Of a stretch of 64,000 nt of DNA, positions 1,757 to 37,428 are shown piece by piece (position 1 is the stretch's first letter; each line of letters starts with the position of its first letter). Both the position numbers and the translations under genes were made by a program. The notes beneath the pieces were generated by a model. The model was not told where the DNA came from. It saw nothing but the letters and a program-made list of their open reading frames with translations, and did no database searches. This stretch comes from a virus, in the IMG/VR virus record IMGVR_UViG_3300025133_000022, positions 1 to 64,000 of that record. The stretch is one strand, 5' to 3'.

Positions 1757-2661
1757 CTGTACCTACTGTGATAATTTTTACTGGGCATGTGCATAAAACC
1801 TGCCTCTTGCCCTAAGGCACTTCGTGCGTTTAAGTGTGATTTGTGCATTGCTTGCACAGCTCTGGAGCGCATAGTCATCGCATTCTGAGTCATAAAAGCT
1901 GCCATGCTACCACTGGTGTCAATACCACGCTGTCGTTGGCGATGCTGATACCCTTGTCGAAGAATGGCTGTGCTGCCTTTAACAACGGCAGCACTAGCAG
2001 CTGCCGTGACTCCAACAGCAGCCATGCCACCTGCAATTAGCGGATTGGTAGCTGCAAAACGCAAAGGCGCAGCTCCAATAAAACCACCAATAAAAGCACC
2101 AGGAGTACCTAAAGCTGCTTGACCAATGGAAGCTCCAATGCCAGCTCCAGCGAACCTAGCCATGCCGCCAATTATGCCTGCCCCACCACCAAATGCAATC
2201 CTAGCACCAGCAGTTTTTACTCCAGTTTGAGCAATCCTAGACATAAATCCAATGTTTGCGCTAGGACCACTTGTGCCTAACGCCCCATATGCAAACCGTG
2301 CTACAGCACTAGCTGTTGCCACTTCCCAAACCGCTGCATCCTTGGCACCAGTCCATCCACCTTCCTGACCGGCCGAGTAAACATTATAAAAACTAAAAGC
2401 CCCACCTGCTGCGCTTCCAAGCATGCGTCTTCCCACGCCTTTAGGAAACATCCTTCGGGCAATATCTGGCATAACTGTTGTAGGAGAAGCATCCAGAAGT
2501 GCATTGTACCCGTGCCACCTAACACCATTAGGTAAACCCTTTACAGGCTCAAAACCTCCAGCAAGCATACCTCCTGCCTGAGCGTAATTCCGAAACCCAC
2601 TTGCGTATGGATTGTTCCAGGTCTTTCCGATAGTATTTTTAAGTCCTTCCCACATTCTCAC
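1753..2661 (-). CDS. Gly/Ala-rich protein, probable internal virion or membrane-penetrating protein
   Basis: 302 aa with long GxxG/AxxA hydrophobic stretches, in the late operon. Confidence 0.55.
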   Translation of the reverse strand: MRMWEGLKNTIGKTWNNPYASGFRNYAQAGGMLAGGFEPVKGLPNGVRWHGYNALLDASPTTVMPDIARRMFPKGVGRRMLGSAAGGAFSFYNVYSAGQEGGWTGAKDAAVWEVATASAVARFAYGALGTSGPSANIGFMSRIAQTGVKTAGARIAFGGGAGIIGGMARFAGAGIGASIGQAALGTPGAFIGGFIGAAPLRFAATNPLIAGGMAAVGVTAAASAAVVKGSTAILRQGYQHRQRQRGIDTSGSMAAFMTQNAMTMRSRAVQAMHKSHLNARSALGQEAGFMHMPSKNYHSRYR

Positions 2662-5609
2662 ATCCTATGGTGGCCAATTGGGCTACTGCTACTTAGAGCC
2701 TGTAATGTTTTTCTTTGGTGAAGGGCCATCCGGGCCTTTCTTGCCCTAGAAAGAGCCTTTCCCGAACCATACTGTTTAAAAGCAGCTGATCGACGTTTGC
2801 TGTGAATCTGGTTGCTGGTACCAACAGTGTCAAGAGCCATAACGGCATCAAGACGACCGTATCCGTTTCTATGGCTAAGTTTATTACTGTTTTCATTACG
2901 TCCTTTTGTTCTGATGAAGCCAGCAAGATCTTGAAGCTGTTCCTGCATATAACTTGTGCTCGGGGTACTTGCAGCCGACATAATTTGTGGGCCAACATGG
3001 TCTGCCCCCACATTGTAACGACTACCTAGATCCGCAGCAAGTGCAGCCGAAGCTGGTGTAAACTGCCCTGATGTTTGGGCAGCATTCATTGCGCTTACCA
3101 TCATCATTGTTCCGGCGTTCTTCACAACAGATTCAGGATTGGCCAACTGGTTAAATGTCACTCTGTTTCCAGAAGCAGCTGTATGCTCATAAAAACTACG
3201 AGCCCATGGCTGGCTCCACATACCCCTGTTAGTCTGATAGGCTCTTGTTTCAGCTTCTTTTAGCGCAGCATAATTAATACTTGCGTATTGTGCCTTTCCA
3301 AAAGGCAAATGGCTAGCTATTCCTCTTTTCACAAGTTCGTAGTTAAGGTTTCGCCCATCAGCGTAAACAGCACCCAGTGCACGACCATATGTTATTTCGT
3401 TTGGGTTGAAGATTAAATCAATATCACTGGCGCCAGCAAGCATAGCTTGGAAAGCCTGCGTTGCTTGATTGGCAAATGGTTGTGCCGGTCTATCTCCGTG
3501 TGCAACTTCCGGAGAGTCAAGGCCAGCCAGTCGGAAACTATAAGACTTATTTAAACCAAAGAAATCTTGCAATGCACCTGTGAGCCCACCTCTGCGAATT
3601 GTTACAGTATCAGCATCGTCTGCCGTAAGTTTCCAGTTCCCATCTTTAATATTGATCTTTTTCAGATCTCCTCTCATGCCGTAATCAGCACCCGCAACTG
3701 TTTGTCCACTTTTTACAAAATCATAGCCACCACCAATAAATGGACTCCAGGTAGGCAGCGAAGGCACCTTGTTTTGATAGTGTTGTGCTCCGTACTGGAC
3801 ACGCAACCACTTCTCTCGCTCGCGGAGCATTTCTTGGTCGATGAAAACTTGCTGAACCCCAACAGGTCCACGGTATGGTGAACCAAAGTCAGTCATGCTA
3901 TGGCGTTGCTGTTTCGCAACGGCTCCCTCGGACATTCCCTCGATTTGCTGCCTGCTAACCCATTCGTCATAACCATAATGCAGAATGGATTCTGGGCGTG
4001 CAGGCTGTTGTTGAAACACGCTTGCCGTCGCTCCAATAGCTGACAATGCAGCAGCAGCGCCTGCAAATACGCCTGCACGCCCTCGTGCGGCCCTAACACC
4101 CATCTCCATAAGCTCAAGGCCAACACCAGCCTTCGGTCGCTGCAGGACCTTGCTTAAGCGTGCACTTGCACCGCCAACTTGAATTTGAGAATACTGGTTG
4201 CGCAACTGAGAAAGACGATCGTGTACATATCGATTAAGACCTTGCTCGTCCTGAGAGTGCTGACTCATGCGTTGCCAAAGCGCATCTAAATCAACCTGGT
4301 CGTAACGTCCCTCTGCACGCACGTGCCCAAGGACCTGATCCATTGTACTGTAATTTGTACGCGTACTTCTTGTGCGCCAAACCTGAGTAAACTGCCCTTT
4401 GGGTGTAAGTTGGCTTTGAGCGAAAGGCAAACCGCCTTGTCGCTGCTGAGTAAACCCTTGTTTTAAGATATCCTGCTGAGCGCGTTGCAGTCGTTTCAGA
4501 GCCTGCTCTTCCTGCAGGATCGGTGAGTGTTCTTCCAGAGCCTGGAAATACATACTGACTTGCCCTAAGACACCATCGCTACCTTCTTTCAAATATCTCT
4601 TACCTAGCTCAGTACCCTCTGCTACGTGTTGAAGAGCACTAGTAAGCTTTACCCCTCTTTCGAGAACATAGCTTTCATGAATAGCTACATCTTCTGCTGC
4701 ACGGTGAACTTCCCTCATTCCGATACGCTCGGTATTGCCCTCTGCAAGAGCGTGGAGCCTGTGAGAGATATCTACACCTGTACCAAGGTAGTTTAAGTCC
4801 TTCTCTGTGAAGCCAAGTTTCTTTCCGTACGAATGGAGTGCGCGCGTCACATCCTGAATATCACGAACTGCCGTCTCCCCCGCCTTGGGTTGGTTTTGCA
4901 GGTAAGCTTTCCAAACACCAGTCCAGTCTCCATTTGCTTGAGCACGAGTACGCGCACGAGTAACTTCTGAACCAGTTACGTAGAACGGGTCGGGGCTTTG
5001 CGGATTCCATGTCTCTAATCCGGACTTGAACTGCTCAGCAGCTTCGGGACCCAGCGCCCCAAGCTGTGCGCCAACTTGCTTGCTTTCAAAAACAGCATTG
5101 GCAATCCAAACGGTCTTGCCACTCATTACCTGCTTGAGAGTTCCAAGAGCATCTTCAACACCAACCTGTTTCCCCAGGTTGGCTTTTATGCCAAGTTTTT
5201 CAAACCTGGTAGTACGAGCAGCGTTTTGAGCATTTATCTCGGCTGATGACGCTCCTAGTAAGTGCGGGTAGTGCTGAATCATACTTGCAAGCCATGGCTG
5301 CTGCTCACGCAATAGCGCCATTGTCTGTCCACGAGGAACTGGTGCTCCTGCTTGCCTCTCGACTTGAGCATGAAGTGCGTGCATCCAGTTACTGTACTTG
5401 TGTGCAGTGTATTGGTCAGCCGATGTACTTGCCAGCTTGGTATGCTCTTGTGGCATAGTCTGGATGGTTACTGCATTTGGGTTCAGTACAAAACTTTGCA
5501 AGTTGCGCGACTGCACATCCATAAAAGCCAGCTCATGCATGCCGGCACCACGTTCGAGACCAAGGGTCTCAGTGTCAAGAATAATTGCACGACGAAGTAA
5601 TTCAGACAC
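2658..5609 (-). CDS. 983-aa fusion: N-terminal DEDDh (DnaQ-like) exonuclease and C-terminal thermonuclease (SNase) domain
   Basis: IILDTETLGL (ExoI), WIANAVFES (ExoII-like), HRAAEDV (ExoIII); DADT, RLAGLDSPE, QPFA.QA, YGR.LGAVYADG.NLN.ELVKRGIA, RGMW (SNase). GTG start with AGGAG RBS. Confidence 0.8.
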   Translation of the reverse strand: MSELLRRAIILDTETLGLERGAGMHELAFMDVQSRNLQSFVLNPNAVTIQTMPQEHTKLASTSADQYTAHKYSNWMHALHAQVERQAGAPVPRGQTMALLREQQPWLASMIQHYPHLLGASSAEINAQNAARTTRFEKLGIKANLGKQVGVEDALGTLKQVMSGKTVWIANAVFESKQVGAQLGALGPEAAEQFKSGLETWNPQSPDPFYVTGSEVTRARTRAQANGDWTGVWKAYLQNQPKAGETAVRDIQDVTRALHSYGKKLGFTEKDLNYLGTGVDISHRLHALAEGNTERIGMREVHRAAEDVAIHESYVLERGVKLTSALQHVAEGTELGKRYLKEGSDGVLGQVSMYFQALEEHSPILQEEQALKRLQRAQQDILKQGFTQQRQGGLPFAQSQLTPKGQFTQVWRTRSTRTNYSTMDQVLGHVRAEGRYDQVDLDALWQRMSQHSQDEQGLNRYVHDRLSQLRNQYSQIQVGGASARLSKVLQRPKAGVGLELMEMGVRAARGRAGVFAGAAAALSAIGATASVFQQQPARPESILHYGYDEWVSRQQIEGMSEGAVAKQQRHSMTDFGSPYRGPVGVQQVFIDQEMLREREKWLRVQYGAQHYQNKVPSLPTWSPFIGGGYDFVKSGQTVAGADYGMRGDLKKINIKDGNWKLTADDADTVTIRRGGLTGALQDFFGLNKSYSFRLAGLDSPEVAHGDRPAQPFANQATQAFQAMLAGASDIDLIFNPNEITYGRALGAVYADGRNLNYELVKRGIASHLPFGKAQYASINYAALKEAETRAYQTNRGMWSQPWARSFYEHTAASGNRVTFNQLANPESVVKNAGTMMMVSAMNAAQTSGQFTPASAALAADLGSRYNVGADHVGPQIMSAASTPSTSYMQEQLQDLAGFIRTKGRNENSNKLSHRNGYGRLDAVMALDTVGTSNQIHSKRRSAAFKQYGSGKALSRARKARMALHQRKTLQALSSSSPIGHHRM

Positions 5610-7262: not shown

Positions 7263-7570
7263 ACTGGTAGTATAAACGCCTACGTGTACAGGGCAACCAA
7301 ATGAAATGAAAATTTCAAACACAGGAAAAGAATTGAGTGAAATGAAAATTTCGGGAACAGAAGAGTAAAAACACATACAGGACTGCAGTACCTGGTTTAT
7401 TTAAGGCAGTGTAGGTAGGGTCCCTTTGTGTTCGGAGCCCACCCCGGTCTAAGTATGAGACCATTTCCTTCTTTTTTACGCACGTGGGCAATGTTGCCCA
7501 TGTGTACATACCGGAGGGACACATGTGTGATCCAGAGCGGGGAGATATATTCGACATGTAAGTCGGGTAT

Positions 7571-7617
7571 GGGAGAGCGCAAGCTCTCCCCTCCTTTTTA
7601 TGGCGTGCTGAAGCCAT
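7571..7617 (+). promoter_or_regulatory. Early cassette element (hairpin, pyrimidine tract, ATGGC..GCCAT hairpin)
   Basis: GGGAGAGC-GCAA-GCTCTCCC CTCCTTTTT ATGGC-GTGCTGAA-GCCAT. Confidence 0.6.
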
Positions 7618-8300
7618 GTGTACTGTGAGTACATGTGGTGAGCGTCGGCTGAGAAGCCTTAAGTCCTGATTACTGTGTGGTGTGTAGGCAACCAGCAGTA
7701 AGCTCTCTCCCTACACAACAATGACCCGGTATGGGGATACTCACAAAGGGCACAACCGCAAGATGTAAGACATCTGCATGTGCCTGGCAATACATACCTG
7801 CTTATGCTCCTGCAAGGAAGGAGTTAGTGAGCCCGCCACTAGGATGCGGGAGGTGACAGTACCACCGATGTACGTTAGTCAGCCTGCGACTAGGATGCAG
7901 GATAGTGTAGCCCCTACTAGGACAGGGGATGTATGAGGGAAGGTGGGGACTGCCCACGGATACCTCTGGTGTGTTGCTCACCCAGGACTGGAGCTGTACG
8001 TATGCCTAGTGCATGCGTATAGTGGCCGGATGCAACTGCTTAGGCCACTATAAGGAAGTGGTAGGTAATCTGCACCTGAAAGCAGGGACGATAGCGCTCG
8101 TACAAGCGCTAGTACACAGGTACGACCTAGTAGGACATGGGCTCAGGTAGGTAGGCATGCCTACACTGAGATGGCACTGCTACTAGGTAACATGCAAGGA
8201 TAACAGTACGTCCTATACGTGCTCGCTGTGGGGTGAGATGCCCACATGTACACACTGTACAACCCGTGCACTTAAGCACATAGATGTCCTGGAGGACACC

Positions 8301-8873
8301 ATGACCAGCAACACAATCATCGAGATCGTCAGTACATTCACCACATACCTGAACACAGGTATCGCATTCATGCTAGCTACCCTAGTAGCGCTTGTGTGTG
8401 CAGGCATCGCAGAGAAGATCATGCACGCACAGAAGACGGCACAGTACAAGGCCCCCTCTGAGGAAGAGGTCTGTGAGGAAGAGGTCATCGCCTGCATAGG
8501 CCTGGAGAGCATCAGCGCTGAGGAGTACATGGACATGGAAGATGCCTCGGTGGTGGTAGTAGAGACCGCCTATCTGACCCTGGTGGATGAGCCCGTGTAC
8601 TCTGATGAGGAGTACATGGCTGAGGAAGACGCTCAGGTAGAAGAGCAGGAGATCACGCTCGAGCAGAACATGGACATGGTAGTGTGGACAGTGAGTCGGA
8701 AGATCCTGTCTGCGGTCAAGTTCGTCAAGGCTCTGGTAGAAGCACCTGCTCGTATAGCCAAGCTGGAGCAGGAGATCGCCGAGCTGAAGCAGAACAACTT
8801 CGACTTTGACTTTGACTTCTATGCTGACGTGAGTGAAGATGAGGGCGTCGAGCAGTACAGGCGCCAAGCGTAA
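8301..8873 (+). CDS. Acidic early protein with one TM helix
   Basis: GGAGG RBS before ATG 8301; TM IAFMLATLVALVCAGIA; Glu-rich body. Confidence 0.75.
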   Translation: MTSNTIIEIVSTFTTYLNTGIAFMLATLVALVCAGIAEKIMHAQKTAQYKAPSEEEVCEEEVIACIGLESISAEEYMDMEDASVVVVETAYLTLVDEPVYSDEEYMAEEDAQVEEQEITLEQNMDMVVWTVSRKILSAVKFVKALVEAPARIAKLEQEIAELKQNNFDFDFDFYADVSEDEGVEQYRRQA

Positions 8874-8881
8874 GGGCATTT

Positions 8882-8920
8882 GAAAGGCAGCCCACTGGAG
8901 GCTACCTTTCTTTTATGGCC
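8882..8920 (+). promoter_or_regulatory. Early cassette element
   Basis: GAAAGGCAGCC-CACTGGA-GGCTACCTTTC TTTT ATGGC. Confidence 0.6.
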
Positions 8921-8969
8921 TCACAAGGATATGCATTTCGCATGTTCGGGCCATACCAAAGGAAGCACA

Positions 8970-9653
8970 ATGCGCACCATCACCATGACCGACGCCGTTC
9001 TCGCCCTCATCACCGACGATGCAGACAGGGAGTTGATGTCTAGCATGAAGGACAGCGAAGCCCCTGAGGACATCATCAAGGATATGCTGACTGAGGGGTC
9101 CTACAGCCGCCTGTTCGCAGGCAACAACCATGCAGTCGCAGAGCTGCATATCACTGACAACAACAACGCTCAGGAGAGCACCATGATCGAGACCAAGACC
9201 ACCAAGACCGCCACCCTGTCCTACATGGGCATAAGCTTCGAGATCACTACCAAGATGGACAAGGCATTCGCTGACAAGACAATCACGGCTGAGGACTTCC
9301 CAAACCTGTCCAAGGGCATGCTGCTACAGATCGCTACCTGGCAGAACGAGCACGTCAACGCTCAGGACGTGGAGACCCCTGTGGCGGAGACCCTCACCCC
9401 TCGGCAGATGTTGAGCAAAGCTTACAACGCCCAGCTCTCGGCCAAGCAGAAGACCTGGCTGCGTGCCAACAACCGCTACAAGGGCATCCACTTCGAAGAC
9501 ATGGGAAAGGGTCGCTTCAAGATCCGGTTCGCCAACTTCAGCACCAAGAGCAAGAAAACCCTGGAAGGCGTGTTCCAGAAGGCTGCTGATGCCAACAACT
9601 GGTACTGCAAGGTGCAGGCATCGCACGTGTACATCAACATGCACCTCGGCTAG
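8970..9653 (+). CDS. Hypothetical early protein
   Basis: AAGGAAG RBS, ATG 8970, strong C/G-ending codon bias. Confidence 0.8.
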   Translation: MRTITMTDAVLALITDDADRELMSSMKDSEAPEDIIKDMLTEGSYSRLFAGNNHAVAELHITDNNNAQESTMIETKTTKTATLSYMGISFEITTKMDKAFADKTITAEDFPNLSKGMLLQIATWQNEHVNAQDVETPVAETLTPRQMLSKAYNAQLSAKQKTWLRANNRYKGIHFEDMGKGRFKIRFANFSTKSKKTLEGVFQKAADANNWYCKVQASHVYINMHLG

Positions 9654-9665
9654 TAGCTGAACATT

Positions 9666-9733
9666 GAAAGGGCACCCACAGGAGGTGCCCTTTTTCTATG
9701 GACACTCAAGTCCATGCCTTGGAGGGCATTATG
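9666..9733 (+). promoter_or_regulatory. Early cassette element
   Basis: GAAAGGGCACC-CACAGGA-GGTGCCCTTT TTCT ATGGAC..GTCCAT, then RBS hairpin. Confidence 0.6.
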
Positions 9734-10057
9734 ACAACCAACAACACACTGCCTTGGCGCACAGCCGGATCTCTTCGGAACAACACAGTCAAGATCGTAG
9801 ACAGGCGTGCAGCCTACGACTCAAACTGCGAGCGTGCCTGCGGCGAATGCGCGGAGTGCAATCGGGCCTGGAACAAGGCTGAAGTCTTCAAGCAAGATCG
9901 TGCTGACCTGCACATCCGCATGTGGCGTGAGCGTGGTGGGCTTATTCCCAACGCGATCGTAGGCTTTGTGCCCTTTGGGCAGAAGAGCTGTGGGTGCATA
10001 AGACATTTAGAAGATTGCATGTGTAGGATGGTGATAGAAGGTGACATTACGTTCTAA
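9731..10057 (+). CDS. Cys-rich hypothetical early protein
   Basis: CxxxCxxCxxC and CxC motifs; GGAGG RBS. Confidence 0.7.
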   Translation: MTTNNTLPWRTAGSLRNNTVKIVDRRAAYDSNCERACGECAECNRAWNKAEVFKQDRADLHIRMWRERGGLIPNAIVGFVPFGQKSCGCIRHLEDCMCRMVIEGDITF

Positions 10058-10062
10058 GCCTT

Positions 10063-10132
10063 GAGAAGGTAGCCCGCTGGAGGCTACCTTCTCTTTTATG
10101 GCACTTACGCCATGATCAAGGAGATCAACATG
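10063..10132 (+). promoter_or_regulatory. Early cassette element
   Basis: GAGAAGGTAGCC..GGCTACCTTCTC TTTT ATGGC-ACTTAC-GCCAT. Confidence 0.6.
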
Positions 10133-10423
10133 ACAAAGAACATTACCCTCGCCCTAGCCCTCACTGGTTGCGGCGATGCAACCTATGGCAAATATGAAGA
10201 CTCGTTTAAGGAAGTCGACGAATCCAGAGTCCAGGTCGAAGTGCTAAGCACTCAGTGTGATTTGATAGACTTAAGCTACGATAGCACGCTAATCATAAGT
10301 GCTACCCACTGGACCAGCAACGGACTTCGAGAGCCGATAGGAGGCTGGTGGGAGGGTGAGAACGGAAACGTTCTGCTTCAAGGCTGCGAAGCCAACGTGG
10401 AGATCGTTTGGCTTGAACGGTAG
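10130..10423 (+). CDS. Predicted lipoprotein
   Basis: MTKNITLALALTG-C lipobox. Confidence 0.7.
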   Translation: MTKNITLALALTGCGDATYGKYEDSFKEVDESRVQVEVLSTQCDLIDLSYDSTLIISATHWTSNGLREPIGGWWEGENGNVLLQGCEANVEIVWLER

Positions 10424-10429
10424 GCAGTT

Positions 10430-10493
10430 GAAGGGTGGTGCAAGCCACCCTTCTCTTTTATGGCAATCAAGCCATGTCCTGGAGGACATTATG
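10430..10493 (+). promoter_or_regulatory. Early cassette element
   Basis: GAAGGGTGG-TGCAAG-CCACCCTTC TCTTTT ATGGC-AATCAA-GCCAT GTCCTGGAGGACATT ATG. Confidence 0.6.
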
Positions 10494-10625
10494 ACCAAGA
10501 CCGATATCGCTACAACCCTCGCTGTTGGGGCATTCTTCTTCCTGTTCGTCGGGATTCCCACTGATGACGGCCTGTACTTCGGCTACTTCTGGAAGCTCGC
10601 CCTCTGGCTCAGTGAGGTGATGTAG
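10491..10625 (+). CDS. Small membrane protein (44 aa)
   Basis: GGAGG RBS; hydrophobic. Confidence 0.6.
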   Translation: MTKTDIATTLAVGAFFFLFVGIPTDDGLYFGYFWKLALWLSEVM

Positions 10626-11005
10626 TGAGGAACAGCAGGTCTGTCCTGTGGTTTGCCGCAGGGTGTCTGCTGTTCATGCCTGCATTCACCCCTATGATGG
10701 TCGACGTTCAGTTGACTGTCTGGATGTTCGTGGTGGACATGATCAAGCCCAACCCAGCACTGCTCTTCGGCTCCCTGTTCTACTGGCCTGTGCTCATCGC
10801 ACTTACAGGCTGGTACTGGGTGTGGAGGGCAGTACGATGGGTCTTCGGCGATGAAGGACCTCTCCCCAGGTTCTTCAAGCTGTTGGGGATAATGTGGGCT
10901 CCTGTCTATGTTATCCCCGGCATCGTCATCATCAGTCTCCTGGGTTGGCTCATATGCTTCTACAAGGCATATGAGATCCACCTGGGGGACAAGAAGGATT
11001 CGTGA
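10625..11005 (+). CDS. Multi-pass membrane protein
   Basis: Three to four hydrophobic segments. Confidence 0.7.
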   Translation: MRNSRSVLWFAAGCLLFMPAFTPMMVDVQLTVWMFVVDMIKPNPALLFGSLFYWPVLIALTGWYWVWRAVRWVFGDEGPLPRFFKLLGIMWAPVYVIPGIVIISLLGWLICFYKAYEIHLGDKKDS

Positions 11006-11307
11006 GTACAAGACATGTCCGCGAGTACTGTTCGCACTGCAGGTGTGAGCAGTGGTGCACACTTAAGGGATGGGGCCTCTACTGTGATGCGAAGGATCAC
11101 TTCGTTCGTAGTAAGAGGGCCGCCAAGAGGAAGGCTCCTACATCCACAAGTATGTACAAGGATGTGCGCGGACACATTAACGATACATTCAATGGGCGTG
11201 GGACCTACACCTGGGATGAGCTGATCATCTGGTGTACTCGCACACACTTCAATGACCTCAAAGGCTTCTGCGAGGACATGAGGGAGGTAGAATGTTCTAC
11301 GTCGTGA
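11002..11307 (+). CDS. Zinc-ribbon hypothetical protein
   Basis: CSHC...C...C motifs; overlaps upstream stop. Confidence 0.7.
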   Translation: MSTRHVREYCSHCRCEQWCTLKGWGLYCDAKDHFVRSKRAAKRKAPTSTSMYKDVRGHINDTFNGRGTYTWDELIIWCTRTHFNDLKGFCEDMREVECSTS

Positions 11308-11430
11308 ATCAGTACGACGAAGAGACTGACCTGAAAGCTACGAGCTGGAAGGAAGCTTACAAAGAGGTTCGGGAGATGTTCCCGCACTTCTACGGAAAGC
11401 TGAACTCAATCATCTTCAAGAGATAGCATT

Positions 11431-11496
11431 GGAAGGGCACTAGAAGGTGCCCTTCTCTTTTATGGCAATTCCTGCCATGTCCTGGAGGACATTATG
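11431..11496 (+). promoter_or_regulatory. Early cassette element
   Basis: GAAGGGCAC-TAGAAG-GTGCCCTTC TCTTTT ATGGC-AATTCCT-GCCAT GTCCTGGAGGACATT ATG. Confidence 0.6.
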
Positions 11497-11769
11497 CGTA
11501 ACAGTACAACAGATCGCCTCGGTGCAGAGATCACCAATCAGTGGCGTGCGTTCAAGGGCACAAAGGCAGAGTTCATGGCTCAGCTGGAAGGCGTCACTTT
11601 GGACCAGCAAGTCATTACGTACGTCAATCCGCTGATGAAGCACATCAAGCAGCAGTTCATGCCATGGGCAGCTGGGATGGAGATCAGCTTCTACTGCACC
11701 ATCGTCCGTGGCCGCAGCTTGATCAGCGTATACAGCTATGGCGACAGTGACTGGCATTGCAAGTACTGA
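11494..11769 (+). CDS. Hypothetical early protein
   Basis: GGAGG RBS; 91 aa. Confidence 0.75.
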   Translation: MRNSTTDRLGAEITNQWRAFKGTKAEFMAQLEGVTLDQQVITYVNPLMKHIKQQFMPWAAGMEISFYCTIVRGRSLISVYSYGDSDWHCKY

Positions 11770-11778
11770 GATAACATT

Positions 11779-11813
11779 GAGCGGGGGCCTTCGGGCTCCC
11801 CTCTCTTTTATGG
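11779..11813 (+). promoter_or_regulatory. Early cassette element upstream of the RNA polymerase gene
   Basis: GGGGGCC-TTCG-GGCTCCC CTCTCTTTT ATGG. Confidence 0.55.
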
Positions 11814-11956
11814 TACTCCGCTTTGGACCTGATGGTCCGGGACTCCGCTGTCCGAGATGACTAGAGGACCAACCATCAGGAGGGGCGTGGCTCGCGCAGC
11901 TCGCCTTCTTCAAGGATTTCGCGCACTAACGTCCAACATGCTGGAGGGCATAATTC

Positions 11957-14900
11957 ATGGACAGACCAACCAACGAAGAGCGCTATAACGCGTTCGCCAA
12001 GAACAACATCATCAGCAACCACATGGACCTCGTATGGGGCATCATGGTTGGCTTCGACCTGGCACCAAGTGTCAGGACATACTGCGCAGCGCTAGGAGAG
12101 GACTTTGAAGTAGAGGCTCTCGAGCATGACCCCATGGGTAAGCTCATCCTTAATCACGTAAGCGATCTGTGGGAGCAGCGGAAGGCCGAGAAGCTGGAGA
12201 AGAGGTGGGCCAAGGAGGTGCGGCGTGTTGCACGTCGCGCCGCATACGCTGACGCTTCGGAGATCAAGGCGAGTAGTCGTCGTGATGGCACCGTGCGATT
12301 CTCCTTCGATACTGCCATGGCCTGCATGGGCCTCATGGCAGAAATCCTCAACTACGAGGGTGTCTCTCAAGAAGAGCCTGTGGTTCTGAATTTACTTAAT
12401 CGCCTCCCCTTCGTCAAGAACGAGAAGGGTAAAGAAACTACCAGACAGCATGATGTTCCTATTAGTGAAGCTGAGAACTTCGGCACCTGTGGTTACGAGC
12501 TATACCAGCTCAAGACCCTATGGAACTCGAAGATCACCGAACTGTGGGACATCTTCGAACGTTGCCTTCCTACCGCAATTGATCGAAGCAGCTATCATCG
12601 TCGGATGCGTGCTCCACTCATCCCCGGCGGCTTCTTGGCTGCGCAGCGCGTCCGCGTCGGCGAACTGCATGTGCGTGGCAAGTCCATGCAGGCTGATGGT
12701 AGTGGGTGGTATGATCCTCACCACGAGGACATGGCTGACCTCATGGCAGAGTACGGTCCTGTCGGACTGCAGTACACTGCCGTCAACCCCATCACCGGTC
12801 ACTTCTTCAAGGGTATCATATACCCAATGGAGAGTATGAATGACTGCGGTGAAGACACTGCGGCCATCCAATTCGACCATCTGCAGGTCAAGGGCGCCAA
12901 GAAGGCTGCCCACAAGACGCTTGCCAAACTTGATCCTCGCGGACTGCTGGCCGGCGCATTCATGCTTGACGGTGTTCACATCGGCATCATGAAGGCCAAG
13001 ACCACGATCGGTAAAGTCTCGGGCTGCTTCGAGACCTTGGAGAACATTGGCCCTAACCCTGCTCACTATGAGAAGGGAAAGGGCAGTGCCAAGTACATCC
13101 GCGATAAGCTTCGTGTGGCTAAACTCATCGCAAGTCTGACTGCTGAGTCAGTCAATGCCATTGGTGAGCTTGGCCCACAAGGCCTGCTCGGTCGTGCCAC
13201 CCGTGACGATCCTCACCTGCGTCGTTTGGCAGAGTTCATCGCTCTGGCAAACGGCAAGGGAGCGGGCATCAACCCGCTCGGCATTCCGCTGCTGGCTTCT
13301 AAGCTGCGGGAGAGCTTGAGTCGTCGCATGTGGGGTCCTGCCAATGGTGCAGGTATCGATGGCAAGTACCCGATGGTCGTGATTGACGCAACCCTGAAGC
13401 CAGGGACCTGCGTCATCGCTGGCTACAAGACCGGCACCAAGCTCGCATGCTGGCGTTTCCCCACCGTTCTCGCCCAGTCCTTGCTGGTTCTCGAGGTCGT
13501 TGGTGGCAAGCGTCATCACCGCGTGGATGATAAGGTTGTTCGCAACCTCATATACATGAACCCGCATGACATCACGACATGTCAGCAGGGTGACGACGAC
13601 GGAGATGAAGTAGGTATCTCCGATGACCCACGAGTCATCGAGTTGTTCAATCATAAGATCGACAACGGTGTCTACCACATCGAGCCCACGTCTGAGAAGC
13701 TCGTTCACCTAGCCAGGGAGCCAAAGGGCAAGGAATATTTACGAAAGAACCCAATGGGGCCAGTTGGTCGCATCACTATCTGGCGTGCAGCTCTGCTCGC
13801 CGTTGGCGATTATCAACTGGCACGTGCCTTCAGTGTCCTCATCCAAGAGGCCATTGACATGCAGAAGAACATCGTCCGCATGACACACCCCCTAAAGGCC
13901 TCCAACCTTAACAACTGGTACAAGAATCGTAATGGTGAGTATCACATCCACTACAAGTGCAACGGCAGTGCAAACTGTCTCTGCACCGAGCGAGTGGATG
14001 GGAAGTGTCCCAATAAGGATAGCGGCTACCTGACGGACAACTGGCTCCAGGAAGAGCCAGGTTTCGACATGGACGTAGTTGAGGATGTCTACAAGAACGC
14101 CCTCATTAGTGCGGGTTGCAGCAGAGTCGTAAAGACCAAGGGTGGCGGGACGAAAGTCATCGCCGGCTGGCCTCTTGGCTGGCGTAACCAGGCTCGCATC
14201 ATCGAGCTCGGAGACGGCAAGAAGGGTGAAAACCCTATCCGAAAGGCAGTGGCTCTAGACAACTGGAAGTCCTGGCGCGAGAAACAGGATGGTGAGTTCA
14301 GTAACTGGGTCCACGTGGCCCACGACCTGGCCATGATTCGCTGGCGCCAATGGCACGACAGCTTCAAAGTGTCAGAGGAAGTACCTACCAAGGACGTCCT
14401 CCACAAGATTCTAACTGCCCTGGGCTCCCCGCTCAAGCCACTACCAATCACGTGGCAGCAATACGCAGAGAAGTCGCACAGGAGTAATCCTGACCCCCTC
14501 CGGGTCCGTGCTGGCATCATTGCCTATGGCGCTGATATGAAGCGGATTCGTACCGAGGGAACCAAGGATGAGGGAAACCTCACTGGTCCAGTCGACGAAT
14601 CAGCGAGAATGGCTAGGATTGACAACATCAGGGCTCACCTGGAGCTAGCGCTCAGCAACCTTAGTCCCCAAGAGCTTCTCACCGTATGGGAGAAGGAACT
14701 GACGGACTGCTGGTACTACGGTAGGCAGGGTAAGCCTAAGTGTTACACAACAGACAAGAAGTCCATTCCAGAAGGAGTGAAGTTCTACACAGCAAACAAG
14801 CCCAACTACGCCTTCATGGCCCTGTGTTCCAGACACTCGGCAATCATGAAGGTCTTGGGCATGGAAGCTTCAGAAGCCTGCAGCTGGACCAACGAGAAGC

Positions 14901-15229
14901 GTTTAGTGTCGTACGTGAAGTGGTGCCGCGCCCAACCTGACAGCTACAAGGCTCTCTCAACGATTATCCGAGGCAACAAGGGTCATCTGAGGGATGTCCA
15001 CGATGAGAACGGCAAGCATCTGCATCTCACTGAGTGCAAAGAATGCACATCTCGGCTCGAAACCGCGCTGGTTCGCTCTATCCGGAGTGACCGCACGGCA
15101 GACGAACAGGAGAAGACAAAGACTCTCATCAGCGCAATGAATAAGCTTCCACACGAAACTGTGGAAGGCACCCAGCAAGAAGAGCCTGCGTACGTAGAAG
15201 TGTACATAGATGACAATCCATACGGTTAG
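11957..15229 (+). CDS. Putative single-chain two-barrel RNA polymerase (YonO / QDE-1-cRdRP-like)
   Basis: 1090 aa. QQGDDDGDEV matches the DxDGD catalytic loop (nt about 13589-13606), preceded by CWRFPTV (R.P motif); DGSGW and FKGII match cRdRP-family upstream motifs. Confidence 0.75.
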   Translation: MDRPTNEERYNAFAKNNIISNHMDLVWGIMVGFDLAPSVRTYCAALGEDFEVEALEHDPMGKLILNHVSDLWEQRKAEKLEKRWAKEVRRVARRAAYADASEIKASSRRDGTVRFSFDTAMACMGLMAEILNYEGVSQEEPVVLNLLNRLPFVKNEKGKETTRQHDVPISEAENFGTCGYELYQLKTLWNSKITELWDIFERCLPTAIDRSSYHRRMRAPLIPGGFLAAQRVRVGELHVRGKSMQADGSGWYDPHHEDMADLMAEYGPVGLQYTAVNPITGHFFKGIIYPMESMNDCGEDTAAIQFDHLQVKGAKKAAHKTLAKLDPRGLLAGAFMLDGVHIGIMKAKTTIGKVSGCFETLENIGPNPAHYEKGKGSAKYIRDKLRVAKLIASLTAESVNAIGELGPQGLLGRATRDDPHLRRLAEFIALANGKGAGINPLGIPLLASKLRESLSRRMWGPANGAGIDGKYPMVVIDATLKPGTCVIAGYKTGTKLACWRFPTVLAQSLLVLEVVGGKRHHRVDDKVVRNLIYMNPHDITTCQQGDDDGDEVGISDDPRVIELFNHKIDNGVYHIEPTSEKLVHLAREPKGKEYLRKNPMGPVGRITIWRAALLAVGDYQLARAFSVLIQEAIDMQKNIVRMTHPLKASNLNNWYKNRNGEYHIHYKCNGSANCLCTERVDGKCPNKDSGYLTDNWLQEEPGFDMDVVEDVYKNALISAGCSRVVKTKGGGTKVIAGWPLGWRNQARIIELGDGKKGENPIRKAVALDNWKSWREKQDGEFSNWVHVAHDLAMIRWRQWHDSFKVSEEVPTKDVLHKILTALGSPLKPLPITWQQYAEKSHRSNPDPLRVRAGIIAYGADMKRIRTEGTKDEGNLTGPVDESARMARIDNIRAHLELALSNLSPQELLTVWEKELTDCWYYGRQGKPKCYTTDKKSIPEGVKFYTANKPNYAFMALCSRHSAIMKVLGMEASEACSWTNEKRLVSYVKWCRAQPDSYKALSTIIRGNKGHLRDVHDENGKHLHLTECKECTSRLETALVRSIRSDRTADEQEKTKTLISAMNKLPHETVEGTQQEEPAYVEVYIDDNPYG

Positions 15230-15334
15230 GCGTGCGTAGCACGCCGTATTGGGCGAGTGGGTCGTGCCGCTCGTCCTCCAGCCTGAGTGTGGGCCCAAAC
15301 GGGCCCCCTCTTTATTTACAACCAATGAGAACCA

Positions 15335-15778
15335 ATGAGAGCAACCTACGAGAAGACGTTCAACGTCATCGTAGTAGAACTCTCTGCAGAAGAGGCCGAG
15401 AAGTACTGCGCAGCAGAAATAAGTGAAAGACATATGGACCTTGAGAAGCAGGGAAACACCTACTATTACACAATTCCATGCGGGAACAGATTCTACCAAA
15501 TGACTCAGCGTCAAAAGGGTGGTATTCAACCATGGGGGCCTGACTACCTTCGTCAGGCTATAAGAGCAGCCGTGGCAAACAGGTTCGTAGCCTGGGAAAG
15601 CCAAACGGGCCAAGAACAATTCAAGAAATACAAGTCCGAGTGGAATAAAGTGTTCCAAAGTCTACTCCGGAACGTACGCTTGAAATTCCCAACGGGTCGG
15701 CACCCACGTGGCCGACTCAACAAGAGTGAGTACAAGTTTCGCGAGCAATGGCGAGATAAATACGTTTGTAGCCGATAG
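15335..15778 (+). CDS. Hypothetical protein
   Basis: 147 aa, co-oriented. Confidence 0.7.
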   Translation: MRATYEKTFNVIVVELSAEEAEKYCAAEISERHMDLEKQGNTYYYTIPCGNRFYQMTQRQKGGIQPWGPDYLRQAIRAAVANRFVAWESQTGQEQFKKYKSEWNKVFQSLLRNVRLKFPTGRHPRGRLNKSEYKFREQWRDKYVCSR

Positions 15779-15790
15779 CTACAAGAATAT

Positions 15791-15819
15791 GGGGTCCGTA
15801 GGACCCCTTATTTTATGAC
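15791..15819 (+). promoter_or_regulatory. Class I hairpin element (triloop, 15 nt, TGAC)
   Basis: GGGGTCC-GTA-GGACCCC TTATTTTA TGAC. Confidence 0.55.
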
Positions 15820-15836
15820 TCAGTCCAGGAGGGAAA

Positions 15837-16040
15837 ATGCCCATCAAAGTCGCGCACAACCTGCACTCACCATACTCAATGACTAACTTCAAAGTCATTG
15901 AGCTTTCACCAGAAACCCTTGCTAAGCTTCTCGGCAACTTGGCAGCGAAGCACGGCTTGTATGGTCAGGCACCAAACGAAGATGTAACCATTATGGGTTA
16001 CATCTTCAACAACGGCATCGCAGTTAACGTGCAGCACTGA
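15837..16040 (+). CDS. Hypothetical protein
   Basis: GGAGG RBS. Confidence 0.6.
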   Translation: MPIKVAHNLHSPYSMTNFKVIELSPETLAKLLGNLAAKHGLYGQAPNEDVTIMGYIFNNGIAVNVQH

Positions 16041-16098
16041 GCCCCACTCTGCAACGTTTCGGAGAATACATGAAACTCATCGCCACACTCCTTTGTAT

Positions 16099-16127
16099 GG
16101 CTCCCGCAGGGAGCCCTCTTATTTGAG
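16099..16127 (+). promoter_or_regulatory. Class I hairpin element
   Basis: GGCTCCC-GCA-GGGAGCC CTCTTATT TGAG. Confidence 0.55.
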
Positions 16128-16157
16128 ACATTTCGTCCCTCACAACCGGAGCCCACC

Positions 16158-16463
16158 ATGTCAGACCCTGCAGACAGCAACCGCCTTGCATTCGCCATTG
16201 CCAGCTTTATCTTTGGCGGAGGTATGATAGCTACCGTCGTAGCATTCACCGTCGTTCCCTTGTCGGAATTGATGACTTGGACGATAACTATCCTCCTGCC
16301 GGTCAGCGCAATCCTCATCGGAACAGGCCTCGTCACCAAGAGCACCTGGGACATGCTGTCTCAGGGAGTGAAGAAAGGCAAGCTCGACGAGCAAATCAAG
16401 CACTGGACAAGCGTGCTGGAGAAGAACCCAGAGGCGACAGTCGACAACACAATGTACAGCTAG
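16158..16463 (+). CDS. Two-TM membrane protein
   Basis: Two hydrophobic helices. Confidence 0.7.
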   Translation: MSDPADSNRLAFAIASFIFGGGMIATVVAFTVVPLSELMTWTITILLPVSAILIGTGLVTKSTWDMLSQGVKKGKLDEQIKHWTSVLEKNPEATVDNTMYS

Positions 16464-16535
16464 TCTGAGGGCCCCGTAAGGGCCCTTTTTTTATGAGACC
16501 CGTTCCTGGGTTTTACAACTACTTGGAGAGCTATC

Positions 16536-17183
16536 ATGCCAGTCATCACCCCCACCGAGAAGAGCTTCACAGTCGGCGAAGAAACCTTCGAAGCAATCTT
16601 AGAGCGCGTCAGGGACTCTCTCCACGAGAGCCTGCAGTGCGACATCCGCATCATCCGGAACGAAGCCAACGGCAACTATCAGTTGTCGTTCGACAACAGC
16701 CTCTTCGTCGGGGTGAATCGCAACCTTCCTCGTGAAGAGAACGATCGTCGTCGCAGCCAGGCCGTCGGGAAGCGCTTCGCACTCCTGGGTGCCCTGACCA
16801 ACGAGTTCGCCAAGCTCGGCCTGGAGTTCGGCAAGCACCTCGCGCCGCGCGATACCCGTCAGTCTACGGATGCCGATGGGAACCGACGATGGACCGCAAC
16901 GACGCAGTTGTGGATTAACATCCCGAACGCACAGAGTGCCGGAACAGCAGCTCCAGCCGCTACAGATGAAGACCTGATGGCCAATGCTTTGGCCATCAAC
17001 TCTGACAAGGCCGATGCCATCTTGGAGAAGGAGTCCAGCATCAATGCCGATGGCAAGCTCACGACCCTTGCCAGGGCTCGTCTGCGGGCACTCATCGCCA
17101 GCTCGATGACCAAGGACGTCCCTGCACCTACACCTACACCTACAACCGAGACTGCAGAGTCCAACAACATGCCGACCGACTAA
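16536..17183 (+). CDS. Hypothetical protein
   Basis: 215 aa with high codon bias. Confidence 0.8.
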   Translation: MPVITPTEKSFTVGEETFEAILERVRDSLHESLQCDIRIIRNEANGNYQLSFDNSLFVGVNRNLPREENDRRRSQAVGKRFALLGALTNEFAKLGLEFGKHLAPRDTRQSTDADGNRRWTATTQLWINIPNAQSAGTAAPAATDEDLMANALAINSDKADAILEKESSINADGKLTTLARARLRALIASSMTKDVPAPTPTPTTETAESNNMPTD

Positions 17184-17349
17184 GCATGTCCCTCCCTCGG
17201 GAGGGTTTTTATTTACCTAGGCAAGCAAAGCTTGCCCTGTGTATAGAGCCAGCCCCCCAACGGGGGGCGAACCCCCGATAGGGGGTGAGCGGAGTCCACT
17301 CCACTCTTTTTAGCTTATCTGAGCATGACTCGAACGCAGTGAGAGACTT

Positions 17350-17835
17350 CTAAACCCTCGATGCAATCTTCTTAACCTTATCCAAAAAGAACTCCCTAGA
17401 ATGGTTGTTCTTGGCCACGTTACAGAAACAACAGCAACTTACCAGGTTGTCGACTTGGTAACCCACATTATTGTCCACACGATCAAGACCCACGGTTTCC
17501 ACTATATCTCCACAGTATGCACAAGGTTTTTGCCAGAAACTTTTGAACTCTTCCAAGGCAAGACTCCAATCCTTACCCCTATCTAAAGCACTTTGCTTAC
17601 ACTTCTTATATCTCCCCACTGCGGATTTCCTATAGGTATAGTTGTACTCTCGTCTCTTCTCAGGAGGAAAGTACTTGGCCCGAGAAACCTTGGCGCAAGG
17701 TCTACATTTTCCCATCAAGCCATCTTTAGCTGCGCTATTCCGACCATATTCCCCCACAGGCTTAAACCTCTTGCAATCATAACATTGCTTGAGTGCTACT
17801 CCGTCTATCGTCTTGTGTCTTGTACTAGTCTTCAT
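17350..17835 (-). CDS. HNH homing endonuclease with N-terminal Zn finger
   Basis: CYDC..KP..EY..CRPC; CAYCG..GLDRVDNNVGY..NLVSCC..CN.AK. Confidence 0.8.
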   Translation of the reverse strand: MKTSTRHKTIDGVALKQCYDCKRFKPVGEYGRNSAAKDGLMGKCRPCAKVSRAKYFPPEKRREYNYTYRKSAVGRYKKCKQSALDRGKDWSLALEEFKSFWQKPCAYCGDIVETVGLDRVDNNVGYQVDNLVSCCCFCNVAKNNHSREFFLDKVKKIASRV

Positions 17836-18215
17836 AAGCTCACCGTAAACGAATTAAAGACATAAGTCAACTTTCAAGATGCTGGAAATCTCATATTAAA
17901 CAAAACTTGTCGAAATAGACACGAAATGAGTCTCCCTGGGAGACTCTTGTTCTAAACTGCACGAAAGTGTTAGAAACCGGTCTCTTTTGCTTAGAAGTGA
18001 TACAAGTAGGAGAAGTTTGAAATAGGGCTTAGCACCACGAACCATCATAAACCATCACAAACTGTTTTTCACCTAATTCCACGAACATACAAGCACTCCT
18101 TCCGCTCCCTCCAACGTTCCTGACGCTAAGTACTTGTACTTACTGCGTTTCCACACAGGGCCTAGAACCTCGCTTTCAACAAGTAAGGAACTGCACCTAC
18201 CACCATGGCGACAAA

Positions 18216-31365: not shown

Positions 31366-32568
31366 ATGCAAACCGAAACCACCATCAATAAGCCCCACTT
31401 CAACATCGGCACCATCGGTCACGTCGACCATGGCAAGACCACGCTGACTGCGGCGATCAGCGCAACCCTGGCCAGCCAGAACGGCGCCAAAGCTGTTGAC
31501 TTCGATCAGATCGACAACGCCCCTGAAGAGAAGGCTCGCGGTATCACCATCAACACCGCACACATCCAGTACGAGACCAGCACGCGTGAGTACGCCCACA
31601 TGGACTGTCCAGGTCACGCCGATTACATCAAGAACATGATCACCGGTGCAGCCCAGATGGACGGCGCTATCCTGCTCGTCGATGGCTCTCAGGGTCCTGA
31701 ACCCCAGACCATCGAGCACATCCTGCTCGCGCGTCAAGTCGGCGTAAAGCACATGGTTGTGTTTGTCAACAAGTGTGACATGCAAGAAGACCCTGAAATC
31801 CTCGAGCTTGTTCAGATGGAAGCCGAAGAGATCCTAGAGAGCAACGACTTCGAAAACGTCACCTTCGTCTTCGGCTCTGCTCTCAAGGCCCTGGAAGCCA
31901 TCCAAGGTGGCGCAGACCACACGGATCCAGCATGCGCATGCATCCTGGACTTGATGCATGCAATCGATCTCATCAAACAGCCCGAGCGAGACCTAAACAG
32001 CCCATTTCGCATGAGCATCGAAGACGTCTTCTCCATCAAAGGCAGAGGAACCGTCGTCACTGGATGTGTCGATCGCGGCAGTGTCAAAGTCGGAGACAAA
32101 GTCGAAATCATCGGCTTTGGAGAAGAACGTGAAGTCGTGGTAACGGGCACGCAGGCATTCCGTAAGGACATCCCTGCTGCCGAAGCCGGCATGAATGTCG
32201 GTCTACTTCTCCGTGGCGTCGCCAAGGACGAAATCAGTACTGGTCAAGTCATGGCGTTCCCCGGCTCCATCAAAAGCTATAAGAATTTCACTTGTGACTT
32301 CTTGACACTAACAGCAGAAGAAGGTGGACGAGTTCATCCGTTCAAACCCGGCTACAAGCCCCAGTTCTTCTTCGGCACAACAAATGTCACCGGCACCATC
32401 CAGACCATCGACAAAGATGGTGTTGAACAGCCGATCTGCACCCCAGGTGACCGCATCACCTGCAACGTAGAGCTGATGAAAGATGCAGGCATGGACGTAG
32501 GTACTCGTTTTGCAGTTCGAGAAGGCAGCCGTACCATCGGTGCAGGTATGATCACCGCTGTCAAGTAA
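31366..32568 (+). CDS. tuf: Elongation factor Tu (divergent)
   Basis: [74 protein letters not shown]. Confidence 0.95.
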
Positions 32569-36345: not shown

Positions 36346-37428
36346 TTGGAAGCACTCTATCCTCTATTTATGATTCTTATCGCTTGTGTCGGCATCATGT
36401 ATGCCTGCAACCTGTTCGAGCAAGCCTCTGACTACCTTGGCCGAAATATGGCCCCTGGTGTTAAAGGCGCGACCATAAATGCCATTGGCAGCTCTCTTCC
36501 AGAGCTGTTCACTACACTCATTCTGCTCTTCTTTTACAAAGACATGGATGGGTTTACTGGTGGAGTCGCGACAACTGCAGGCTCAGCAGTCTTTAACGCT
36601 GTTCTCATACCTGCAAGTGTAATTCTAGCCGTCACAGTCTGGAAAGCAACTACCAGCGATATCAAGATTAGTCGACCGGTCCTCCTGCGAGACGGCTTCT
36701 TCGTCATCGTAGCCGAGCTTGCCCTGATCTTCTTCCTGGGTGCAGCTGAACTAACTACCTGGATGGGTTTGGTCCTCATGAGCATCTACGGTGCGTACTT
36801 CACGTACTTGATGATACAAAACCTACACCACGAAGAAGAAAATGAGAAAGAAGACGAACACCTAGTAGCCCTGGGATTCTGGCAAGACCTTTGGACCGGC
36901 ACCACCGGCAAGGATGACATTGGCTTTGACAAAGGCCCCGATAGCAGTGCATTGCACGGGGACTTGCGTGCATGGATCTTCTTAAGCCTGGCTACCAGCG
37001 CAGTTGGTGCATTCTGTCACCTGCTGGCTCACGCCACCGTTAGTCTAGCTACTATCTGGGAAGTGCCGTTGTTTATCACAACAGTCGTCTTCGCAGCAGC
37101 AGCAACCAGCGTTCCAGACACAATCATCAGCATCAAGGATGCACTCAAGGGCGAGTACGAAGATGCTGTTGCCAATGCCATTGGCAGCAATATCTTTGAT
37201 GTCTGCTTTTCCCTAGGGTTGCCCCTGGCACTTTACACAATTGTCTACGGTCCTGTACACCTTCAAGGCGGAGCGGAAATACAAGTTCTCCGCTGGGTAA
37301 TGCTTGGTTTCACCCTGGTCGTCCTTGCCGTATTTCTCAAAGGTAAAGTTGGTAAAAAAGCTGGCTACACAATGCTTGGCATGTACTTCAGCTGGTTAAG
37401 CTATATCGCATACATTGCTTTTAGCTAA
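36346..37428 (+). CDS. Ca2+/cation (Na+/Ca2+) exchanger, CaCA/YrbG family
   Basis: Alpha-1 repeat GATINAIGSSLPELF and alpha-2 repeat AAATSVPD...NAIGSNIFD; about 10 TM. Confidence 0.9.
   Translation: MEALYPLFMILIACVGIMYACNLFEQASDYLGRNMAPGVKGATINAIGSSLPELFTTLILLFFYKDMDGFTGGVATTAGSAVFNAVLIPASVILAVTVWKATTSDIKISRPVLLRDGFFVIVAELALIFFLGAAELTTWMGLVLMSIYGAYFTYLMIQNLHHEEENEKEDEHLVALGFWQDLWTGTTGKDDIGFDKGPDSSALHGDLRAWIFLSLATSAVGAFCHLLAHATVSLATIWEVPLFITTVVFAAAATSVPDTIISIKDALKGEYEDAVANAIGSNIFDVCFSLGLPLALYTIVYGPVHLQGGAEIQVLRWVMLGFTLVVLAVFLKGKVGKKAGYTMLGMYFSWLSYIAYIAFS

Follow-up and report, generated by a model that had tools for sequence, protein, structure and literature searches.

The stretch of DNA analyzed here (the window) comprises the first 64 kb, or 64,000 nucleotides (nt), of the 192,537-bp virus record IMGVR_UViG_3300025133_000022, which is rated 100% complete. 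On its + strand, at 11957 to 15229, lies a gene whose 1090-amino-acid (aa) product, P0001, is almost certainly a single-chain homologue of two-barrel RNA polymerases (RNAPs) that retains an intact active site. Judging from the sequence and its setting, P0001 probably serves this phage as a DNA-dependent transcriptase of its own that is not packaged in the virion. The open reading frame (ORF) runs for 1090 codons without an internal stop, beginning at an ATG with GGAGG 9 nt on its 5′ side. An earlier note on this DNA had read four motifs from the translation, and all were found in the order it gave: DGSGW (aa 247 to 251), FKGII (284 to 288), WRFP (499 to 502), and QQGDDDGD (543 to 550). A word-indexed search with P0001 returned 21 relatives at 28 to 80% identity, several of them on contigs of 142 to 205 kb, and when 1.8 billion cluster representatives (clusters at 50% identity) were searched exhaustively with a profile, 213 were returned at E ≤ 1e-3, including 152 at E ≤ 1e-30. 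We scored conservation in two nonoverlapping sets of relatives (n = 54 and n = 42) with 17 to 44% identity to P0001. The three loop aspartates (D546, D548, and D550), K285, G286, K312, P502, and Q272 are invariant in both sets, as are E576, G604, Q630, D634, K637, and W742. For D247, G248, and R500, conservation is complete in one of the sets and 90% or higher in the other. An intact DxDGD loop preceded by R-x-P in one chain, as the note had it, is supported. This motif set and its conservation are far beyond chance, and the family, which is large, with at least 213 clusters, and found on contigs of ~140 to 205 kb, is without a Pfam or PHROG model.

The fold of P0001 points to the same class of enzyme. 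We modeled the protein with AlphaFold2 from a 22-sequence alignment (predicted local distance difference test score [pLDDT], 86.7; predicted template modeling score [pTM], 0.81), and the model is confident, being poor only at the termini and at aa 869 to 879. A Foldseek search of the PDB placed QDE-1 at the top (E 3e-11), followed by plant RDR2, P74-26 gp62/P23-45 gp64, and P23-45 gp96, with crAss phi14:2 gp66 (E 5e-4) and then the largest subunits of Pol II/IV at lower ranks. When these matches were superposed with VIA-align, maize RDR2 scored Z 17.3 (489 aa aligned; root mean square deviation [rmsd], 4.4), QDE-1 scored 16.9 (530 aa aligned), gp62 scored 15.3 (435 of 592 residues; rmsd, 3.7; 14% identity), and gp96 scored 10.8. 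A search of 48,161 representative chains that was independent of Foldseek gave RDR2 at Z 16.6, gp62 and QDE-1 each at 15.3, and gp96 at 11.0, with Pol I/II at ~10 and crAss gp66 at 9.4 (585 residues aligned) further down. The top ranks of both searches were held by two-barrel RNAPs only, which bears out the single-chain two-barrel fold that had been predicted from the motifs. In the 48,161-chain search, aa 467 to 558 also matched isolated double-psi beta-barrels (DPBBs), namely, the designed msDPBB_sym2 (Z 9.1), a VCP-like DPBB (8.4), and NSF-N (8.1), as well as the active-site region of Rpb1/beta-prime. From the superposition of the whole core together with these isolated-barrel matches, it follows that the model does contain double-psi beta-barrels, whose absence the earlier note had named as grounds for giving up its reading. 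There was no sign of a T7-like PolA fold, in that the fold matches of P0001 were all two-barrel enzymes and no Pfam match was obtained.

The model allows the chain to be divided from end to end. It opens with a helical N-terminal part (aa 1 to 96) and a beta-rich module (aa 98 to 205). The polymerase core at 12236 to 14377 (+; aa 94 to 807) superposes in VIA-align on QDE-1 and RDR2 over aa 94 to 807 and on gp62 over aa 123 to 807, with 435 to 530 residues aligned at an rmsd of 3.7 to 4.4. Within it, a block of beta strands at 12632 to 13021 (+; aa 226 to 355) holds DGSGW and FKGII, with D247, K285, and K312. From its position we infer that this is barrel 1, the beta-subunit-like barrel (DPBB-B), an assignment supported via the whole-chain alignments to QDE-1 and RDR2. 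Long connector helices (aa 378 to 464) lead to barrel 2, the beta-prime-like barrel (DPBB-A) at 13358 to 13630 (+; aa 468 to 558), which is the part with the DPBB matches and which carries WRFP (aa 499 to 502) and the metal-binding loop QQGDDDGD (aa 543 to 550). Directly after the D546/D548/D550 loop comes E551; in Rpb1 the corresponding sequence is DFDGDE. The aspartate triad would hold the catalytic Mg2+, and K285 and K312, which are presumably equivalent to the lysines of the beta subunit, would pair with it at one active site. A bridge-helix-like element at 13763 to 13867 (+; aa 603 to 637), modeled as helices at aa 603 to 615 and 619 to 634, ends in IQEAIDxQK, in which Q630, D634, and K637 are the invariant residues, and the remainder of the core extends from aa 640 to 807. 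The C-terminal domain (aa 808 to 1075) was hardly covered by the fold comparisons. A probable zinc site at 14879 to 15046 (+) consists of C975, H1010, C1027, and C1030, each of which shows 90% conservation or more, up to full invariance, across both sets of relatives. P0001 also has a Cys-rich insertion at aa 666 to 688 (13952 to 14020), with four Cys in ~20 residues, that is not in the family consensus. Other members of the family are longer (1327 to 2566 aa), and no additional Pfam domains were found when these were scanned. In the longest, at L022:8001-15701 (+) on a 151-kb metagenomic contig, the RNAP-like region is the C-terminal quarter (aa ~1975 to 2516) of a 2566-aa ORF with no Pfam domain in the extension; this ORF comes immediately 3′ of a divergent gap and takes the position that the small early genes described below would occupy.

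At the level of sequence, searches with P0001 alone gave no match in Pfam (E ≤ 1), PHROGs, the PDB (phmmer), or GenBank phages (tblastn and megablast). With hhalign, however, a 54-sequence profile aligned to P23-45 gp64 over 176 columns (74.8% probability; E 2.6e-5), in a register that places WRFP on the R-x-P of gp64, GDDDGD on ADYDGD, and IQEAIDxQK on IQVAVDRQK in the bridge-helix region. A shallower 22-sequence profile gave the identical register at only 5.9% probability, and an hmmsearch of the family against PDB sequences produced five weak matches, among them 8F72 and 8F5M at IQEAIDxQK (E 0.43). For YonO, hhalign gave 0.7% probability (E 0.078) over 35 columns around the Asp loop only, and no PHROG was common to the two. 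The N terminus of gp96 did not align with the P0001 family by hhalign, though the folds match at Z ~11. When relatives were scanned singly, the Pfam family RdRP (PF05183) was the sole recurring family, appearing in 1 of 22 (E 5.5e-5) in one scan and in 4 of 42 (best, 1e-5) in another, or 5 of 63 relatives in all. All of these matches are weak and below threshold, and P0001 itself has none. The closest ESM Atlas clusters are viral and carry automatic names as RdRP-domain proteins. Taken together, P0001 is within the clade of phage and RNA interference (RNAi) polymerases of PMC10770324 and outside the formal Pfam RdRP, YonO, and crAss gp66 families.

These relationships raise the question of template. 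P0001 might be chiefly an RNA-dependent RNA polymerase (RdRP) like QDE-1 and RDR2, which copies or amplifies phage or host RNAs rather than DNA. Its best structural matches are RDR2 and QDE-1, PF05183 is the only Pfam family to recur among its relatives, the nearest Atlas clusters are named after RdRPs, and genes related to noncoding RNA (Ro60/TROVE, an RNA ligase, and 11 tRNAs) lie in the same window. On the other hand, gp62/gp64 score only ~1.3 to 2 Z units below the RdRPs, and the phage homologues have been described as DNA dependent: YonO (PMC5467207), P23-45 gp64 and gp96 (PMC10770324), and crAss gp66 (10.1101/2020.03.07.982082). Furthermore, P0001 is encoded in a complete 192-kb genome with phage-specific cassettes and no other recognizable RNAP or sigma gene, and its conserved site at the end of the early block suits a transcriptase. 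We consider a mainly RNA-copying enzyme improbable and take DNA to be the more probable template of P0001.

The genome around the gene is that of a contractile-tailed phage, with genes for the tail sheath, portal, and major head protein, and three runs labeled marine metagenome contain the DNA of the window. Among sequencing runs, none of RNA was found to contain this phage. Its replication genes include a split DnaE, DnaG-DnaB, and RecA. With its own DnaE and DnaG-DnaB, the phage can replicate without need for a two-barrel polymerase. Six-frame searches across the entire genome gave no match to Sigma70_r2, Rpb1_2, or Rpb2_6, all of which gave a signal in control genomes. The corresponding search for PF00940 (T7 type) found no match and had an uninformative control. 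The structural genes lie on the − strand, in a block that begins at 131 kb, reaches the right end, and resumes at 1 to 7.4 kb. A noncoding divergent gap of 860 nt (7377 to 8237) splits this structural (−) block from the early (+) block, and the RNAP gene lies ~4 kb beyond it, outside the structural block and at the end of a conserved run of small early genes. In relatives, the order is conserved as terminase, a gene for a ~730- to 1000-aa SNase-domain protein (−), gap, small + genes, and RNAP, and it is kept at RNAP identities of 63%, 35%, and 28% as well as on the 151-kb contig with the longer RNAP form. One relative, a complete genome of 183.5 kb with terminal repeats, has its RNAP locus at most ~20 kb from a genome end. 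The position of the locus supports an early enzyme that would not be packaged in the virion, and the conserved early site outside the structural block fits the non-virion RNAP that the earlier note had placed there.

Some features of this region stand apart from the polymerase. The divergent gap holds a cluster of short hairpins with ACTAGGA in loops or arms (7836, 7887, 7914, and 8123 to 8137; 15 hits in the window versus 4.7 expected), possibly an array of binding sites or a portion of an origin or of a control region. The SNase-domain protein of this phage (983 aa, with the domain at aa 692 to 800; 2658 to 5609, −) is next to the gap and near terminase in all relatives examined. G+C content is 52 to 55% at 8000 to 18000, which spans the pre-early block and the RNAP gene, versus 43 to 46% over most of the window past 18 kb. 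The gene 3′ of the RNAP (15335 to 15778) was considered as a conserved cofactor and set aside, as it is not conserved in distant relatives.

Two classes of hairpin cassette divide the early region, and the class switches at the RNAP gene, with the pre-early class 5′ of it and class I 3′ of it. Sequence inspection and a pattern search located seven pre-early cassettes on the + strand, at 7571, 8882, 9666, 10063, 10430, 11431, and 11779 (7571 to 11813), each consisting of a GC-rich hairpin of variable sequence, then CTTCTCTTTTATGG(C), and then a small 5′ hairpin that starts inside ATGGC. In short form the motif is the hairpin plus YTTTCTTTATGG, with one ahead of each small early gene, and the RNAP gene follows the last cassette (11779). 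Against 3.5 expected, the pattern search gave 11 hits, and the 7 true copies among them form a cluster on the + strand. In the relatives L017, L018, and L019, this cassette also precedes the small genes 5′ of the RNAP, and in L013 it stands directly before the RNAP gene; the RNAPs of these four relatives have 26 to 63% identity to P0001. Class I cassettes, found by a genome-wide scan, consist of a GC hairpin, 7 to 8 T-rich nt, and TGAG or TGAA, which often opens a 5′ hairpin. Of 22 on the + strand of the genome, 19 are in the window (15791 to 54180), the first of them 560 nt past the stop codon of the RNAP gene, and 3 are at 76 to 88.6 kb. The − strand gave 3 loose hits, and the structural block is devoid of the class.

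The hairpins with their U-tracts look like terminators that act at the level of RNA, which would leave only the short motif after them as the promoter-like part. A transcript 5′ end, made either by initiation or by processing, would lie at the fixed ATGG or TGAG and its 5′ hairpin. The change of class exactly at the RNAP gene fits a switch of polymerase, with P0001 reading the TGAG class, and we put this at close to an even chance, perhaps slightly less. P0001, once made, would then transcribe the + genes downstream, a stretch that begins at 15.8 kb and reaches 54 kb or beyond, initiating at the T-rich/TGAG motif 3′ of each terminator hairpin. Several observations weigh against this proposal or against a DNA-dependent transcriptase in general. 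The downstream motifs are less uniform in distant relatives, and class I cassettes fit plain intrinsic terminators, in which case TGAG could be a processing site and not a start. In addition, RDR2 and QDE-1, which head the fold matches, depend on RNA templates, although QDE-1 copies DNA as well (PMC9508822).

The terminator-like character of the cassettes also leads to a different division of labor, in which host RNAP transcribes the early region, the hairpins are only terminators or RNase sites, and P0001 serves, for example, the late genes via other motifs. Sites for RNase III separate the early mRNAs of T7. Terminator-like sites are enriched at 7 to 17 kb (22 versus 8.2 ± 2.8), the loops are often UUCG or GNRA, which is a feature of RNA, and the U-tract is base-paired to an A-rich 5′ arm, an arrangement known from classic intrinsic terminators. 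A k-mer search of the late block was left with almost no intergenic DNA in which to inspect motifs, which suits this alternative too. However, a terminator leaves unexplained both the fixed ATGG/TGAG and the 5′ hairpin that starts within it. Nor was there an excess of sigma-70-like promoters (5 versus 6.4 expected), and none heads the + block, although the consensus of the host may differ from the sigma-70 model. On balance, we find early transcription by the host alone, with P0001 confined to other genes, very unlikely.

A third alternative gives P0001 a part from the moment of infection: it would be carried in the virion and injected, to act on the pre-early YTTTCTTTATGG cassettes, among them the cassette that heads its own gene. 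The conservation of the pre-early cassette together with the RNAP family down to 26 to 28% identity, and its dissimilarity to a sigma-70 promoter, would suit such a role, and a polymerase at time zero is needed if host RNAP cannot read the cassette, the other candidate for that task (P0171, below) being unconfirmed. Yet the gene sits in the early block, distant from the structural operon and on the opposite strand, and three described virion RNAPs are encoded with structural proteins or fused to them. The crAss-like virion RNAP is a large packaged protein (10.1101/2020.03.07.982082), that of P23-45 is a fusion with the tape measure (PMC10770324), and that of N4 is a virion protein of ~3500 residues (PMC13434306). 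Moreover, gp64, the phage enzyme that P0001 matches best, does not belong to the virion (PMC10770324). An injected P0001 thus seems unlikely, and a non-virion P0001 is the reading that we carry forward.

How a non-virion P0001 is first made bears on the proposal of the earlier note that the system follows the logic of T7 gp1. That logic requires host RNAP to make P0001, and we found no support for it: there is no sigma-70-like excess 5′ of the gene, and the upstream genes have a phage-specific cassette. A start by a virion enzyme, as in P23-45 or N4, is therefore equally possible. Three routes to P0001 synthesis are open, namely, host RNAP acting via an unrecognized signal, injected P0001, or a separate virion RNAP. 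For the last, there is a candidate outside the window, P0171, a 1707-aa tail-block protein encoded on the − strand at genome positions 161120 to 166243 (L002:11121-16244), between the genes for a 1366-aa and a 3005-aa protein. Its DMDGD at aa 1281 to 1285 is invariant in 11 homologues, and it is present alongside the RNAP in the sole complete distant relative. An AlphaFold2 model of aa 450 to 1560 was poor (pLDDT, 58; pTM, 0.34), and with this poor model Foldseek found nothing in the PDB at E ≤ 1e-3 and a wide fold search found only helical bundles at Z < 8. Comparison by hhalign with the P0001 family and gp96 gave no alignment, and there was no PHROG or Pfam match. P0171 is an unconfirmed candidate for a virion RNAP. 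A host-independent cascade in which a virion enzyme, perhaps P0171, reads the YTTTCTTTATGG cassettes to yield P0001, which then reads the TGAG cassettes, is a rather doubtful scheme. If true, it would be the two-polymerase scheme of P23-45 in an unrelated, abundant marine lineage of ~190-kb contractile-tailed phages. The neighboring 3005-aa tail-block protein (genome positions 152106 to 161123, −; L002:2107-11124:-) has an endolysin-like segment at aa ~2550 to 2720 (PHROG 20474; E 5e-47).

Among characterized enzymes, P23-45 gp64 and P74-26 gp62 (8F72 and 8F5M; PMC10770324) offer the closest phage comparison. They are likewise single-chain two-barrel enzymes (Z 15.1 to 15.3 over 413 to 435 of ~592 residues), gp64 and P0001 have in common R-x-P, DxDGD, and the bridge-helix motif IQxAxDxQK, and both genes are among the earliest and outside the structural block. 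They differ in length (1090 aa in P0001 versus 616 aa in gp64), P0001 having in addition the N-terminal aa 1 to 120 and a C-terminal domain of ~270 aa with the CHCC site. Their identity is 14 to 16%, such that homology in sequence is visible only with a deep profile. The phages differ as well: that of P0001 is a marine, ~190-kb contractile-tailed phage, whereas P23-45 is a Thermus siphovirus with a partner RNAP fused to its tape measure. The best fold matches overall, QDE-1 (2J7N and 7Y7x) and RDR2 (7W82 and 7ROZ), align at Z 15.3 to 17.3 over 490 to 530 residues that include both barrels and the connector. Unlike these RNAi RdRPs, to which it has ~10 to 12% identity, P0001 is viral and prokaryotic, and its gene context points to transcription of phage DNA and not to RNA silencing.

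Other phage polymerases are more distant. YonO of the Bacillus prophage SPbeta (PMC5467207) is also a single-chain two-barrel, non-virion enzyme of ~100 kDa with DxDGD and the same functional logic, but it has no sequence relation to P0001 beyond the Asp loop, in a comparison made by sequence without a solved YonO structure. The gp66 protein of crAss phi14:2 (6VR4) belongs to the same superfamily (Foldseek E 5e-4; Z 9.4); however, it is a virion-packaged protein of 2180 aa, whereas P0001 is half as long and encoded in the early block. The active-site loop is DxDGD in P0001 versus DFDxD in crAss-like phages (10.1101/2020.03.07.982082). With T7 gp1, whose fold is unrelated, P0001 would have only the proposed logic in common, in which an early product takes over the later classes of genes at phage-specific promoters.

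Against this background, to call P0001 and its cassettes an undescribed transcription system, as had been done, overstates the case. Polymerases of this kind are already known, because non-virion single-chain two-barrel enzymes have been characterized in YonO (PMC5467207) and P23-45 gp64 (PMC10770324), PMC7281927 attributes single-subunit two-barrel RNAPs to "many phages", and some related viral clusters are already labeled as RdRP domain-containing. The novelty lies in the family itself, its extra domains, the two conserved classes of cassette, and fold scores that place it no farther from the eukaryotic RdRPs than from gp64. We found no paper on the P0001 family, which may be one of the 23 families of two-barrel RNAPs aligned in PMC10770324. 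Characterized single-chain two-barrel RNAPs are few (YonO, gp64, gp96, gp66, and QDE-1/RDRs), and they bear on the origin of cellular RNAPs and of the eukaryotic RNAi polymerases (PMC7281927 and PMC10770324). P0001 may be among the phage enzymes closest to the eukaryotic RNAi RdRPs. The two classes of cassette are ready templates for promoter and terminator assays, and the family makes a good starting point for experiments, although it does not amount to a new principle.

The remainder of the genome adds a few observations of its own. The DnaE (DNA polymerase III alpha) is split into at least three ORFs at genome positions 99271 to 105907 (+), which encode PHP and the N-terminal palm, palm and fingers, and HhH and OB. 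The window also encodes full-length EF-Tu, Ro60/TROVE-vWA, an RNA ligase, and a membrane protein of the Na/Ca-exchanger family (31366 to 32568, 55441 to 57024, 43249 to 44610, and 36346 to 37428, respectively), together with a ribonucleotide reductase gene. The 11 tRNA genes, predicted with ARAGORN, are spread over 30.9 to 63.7 kb.

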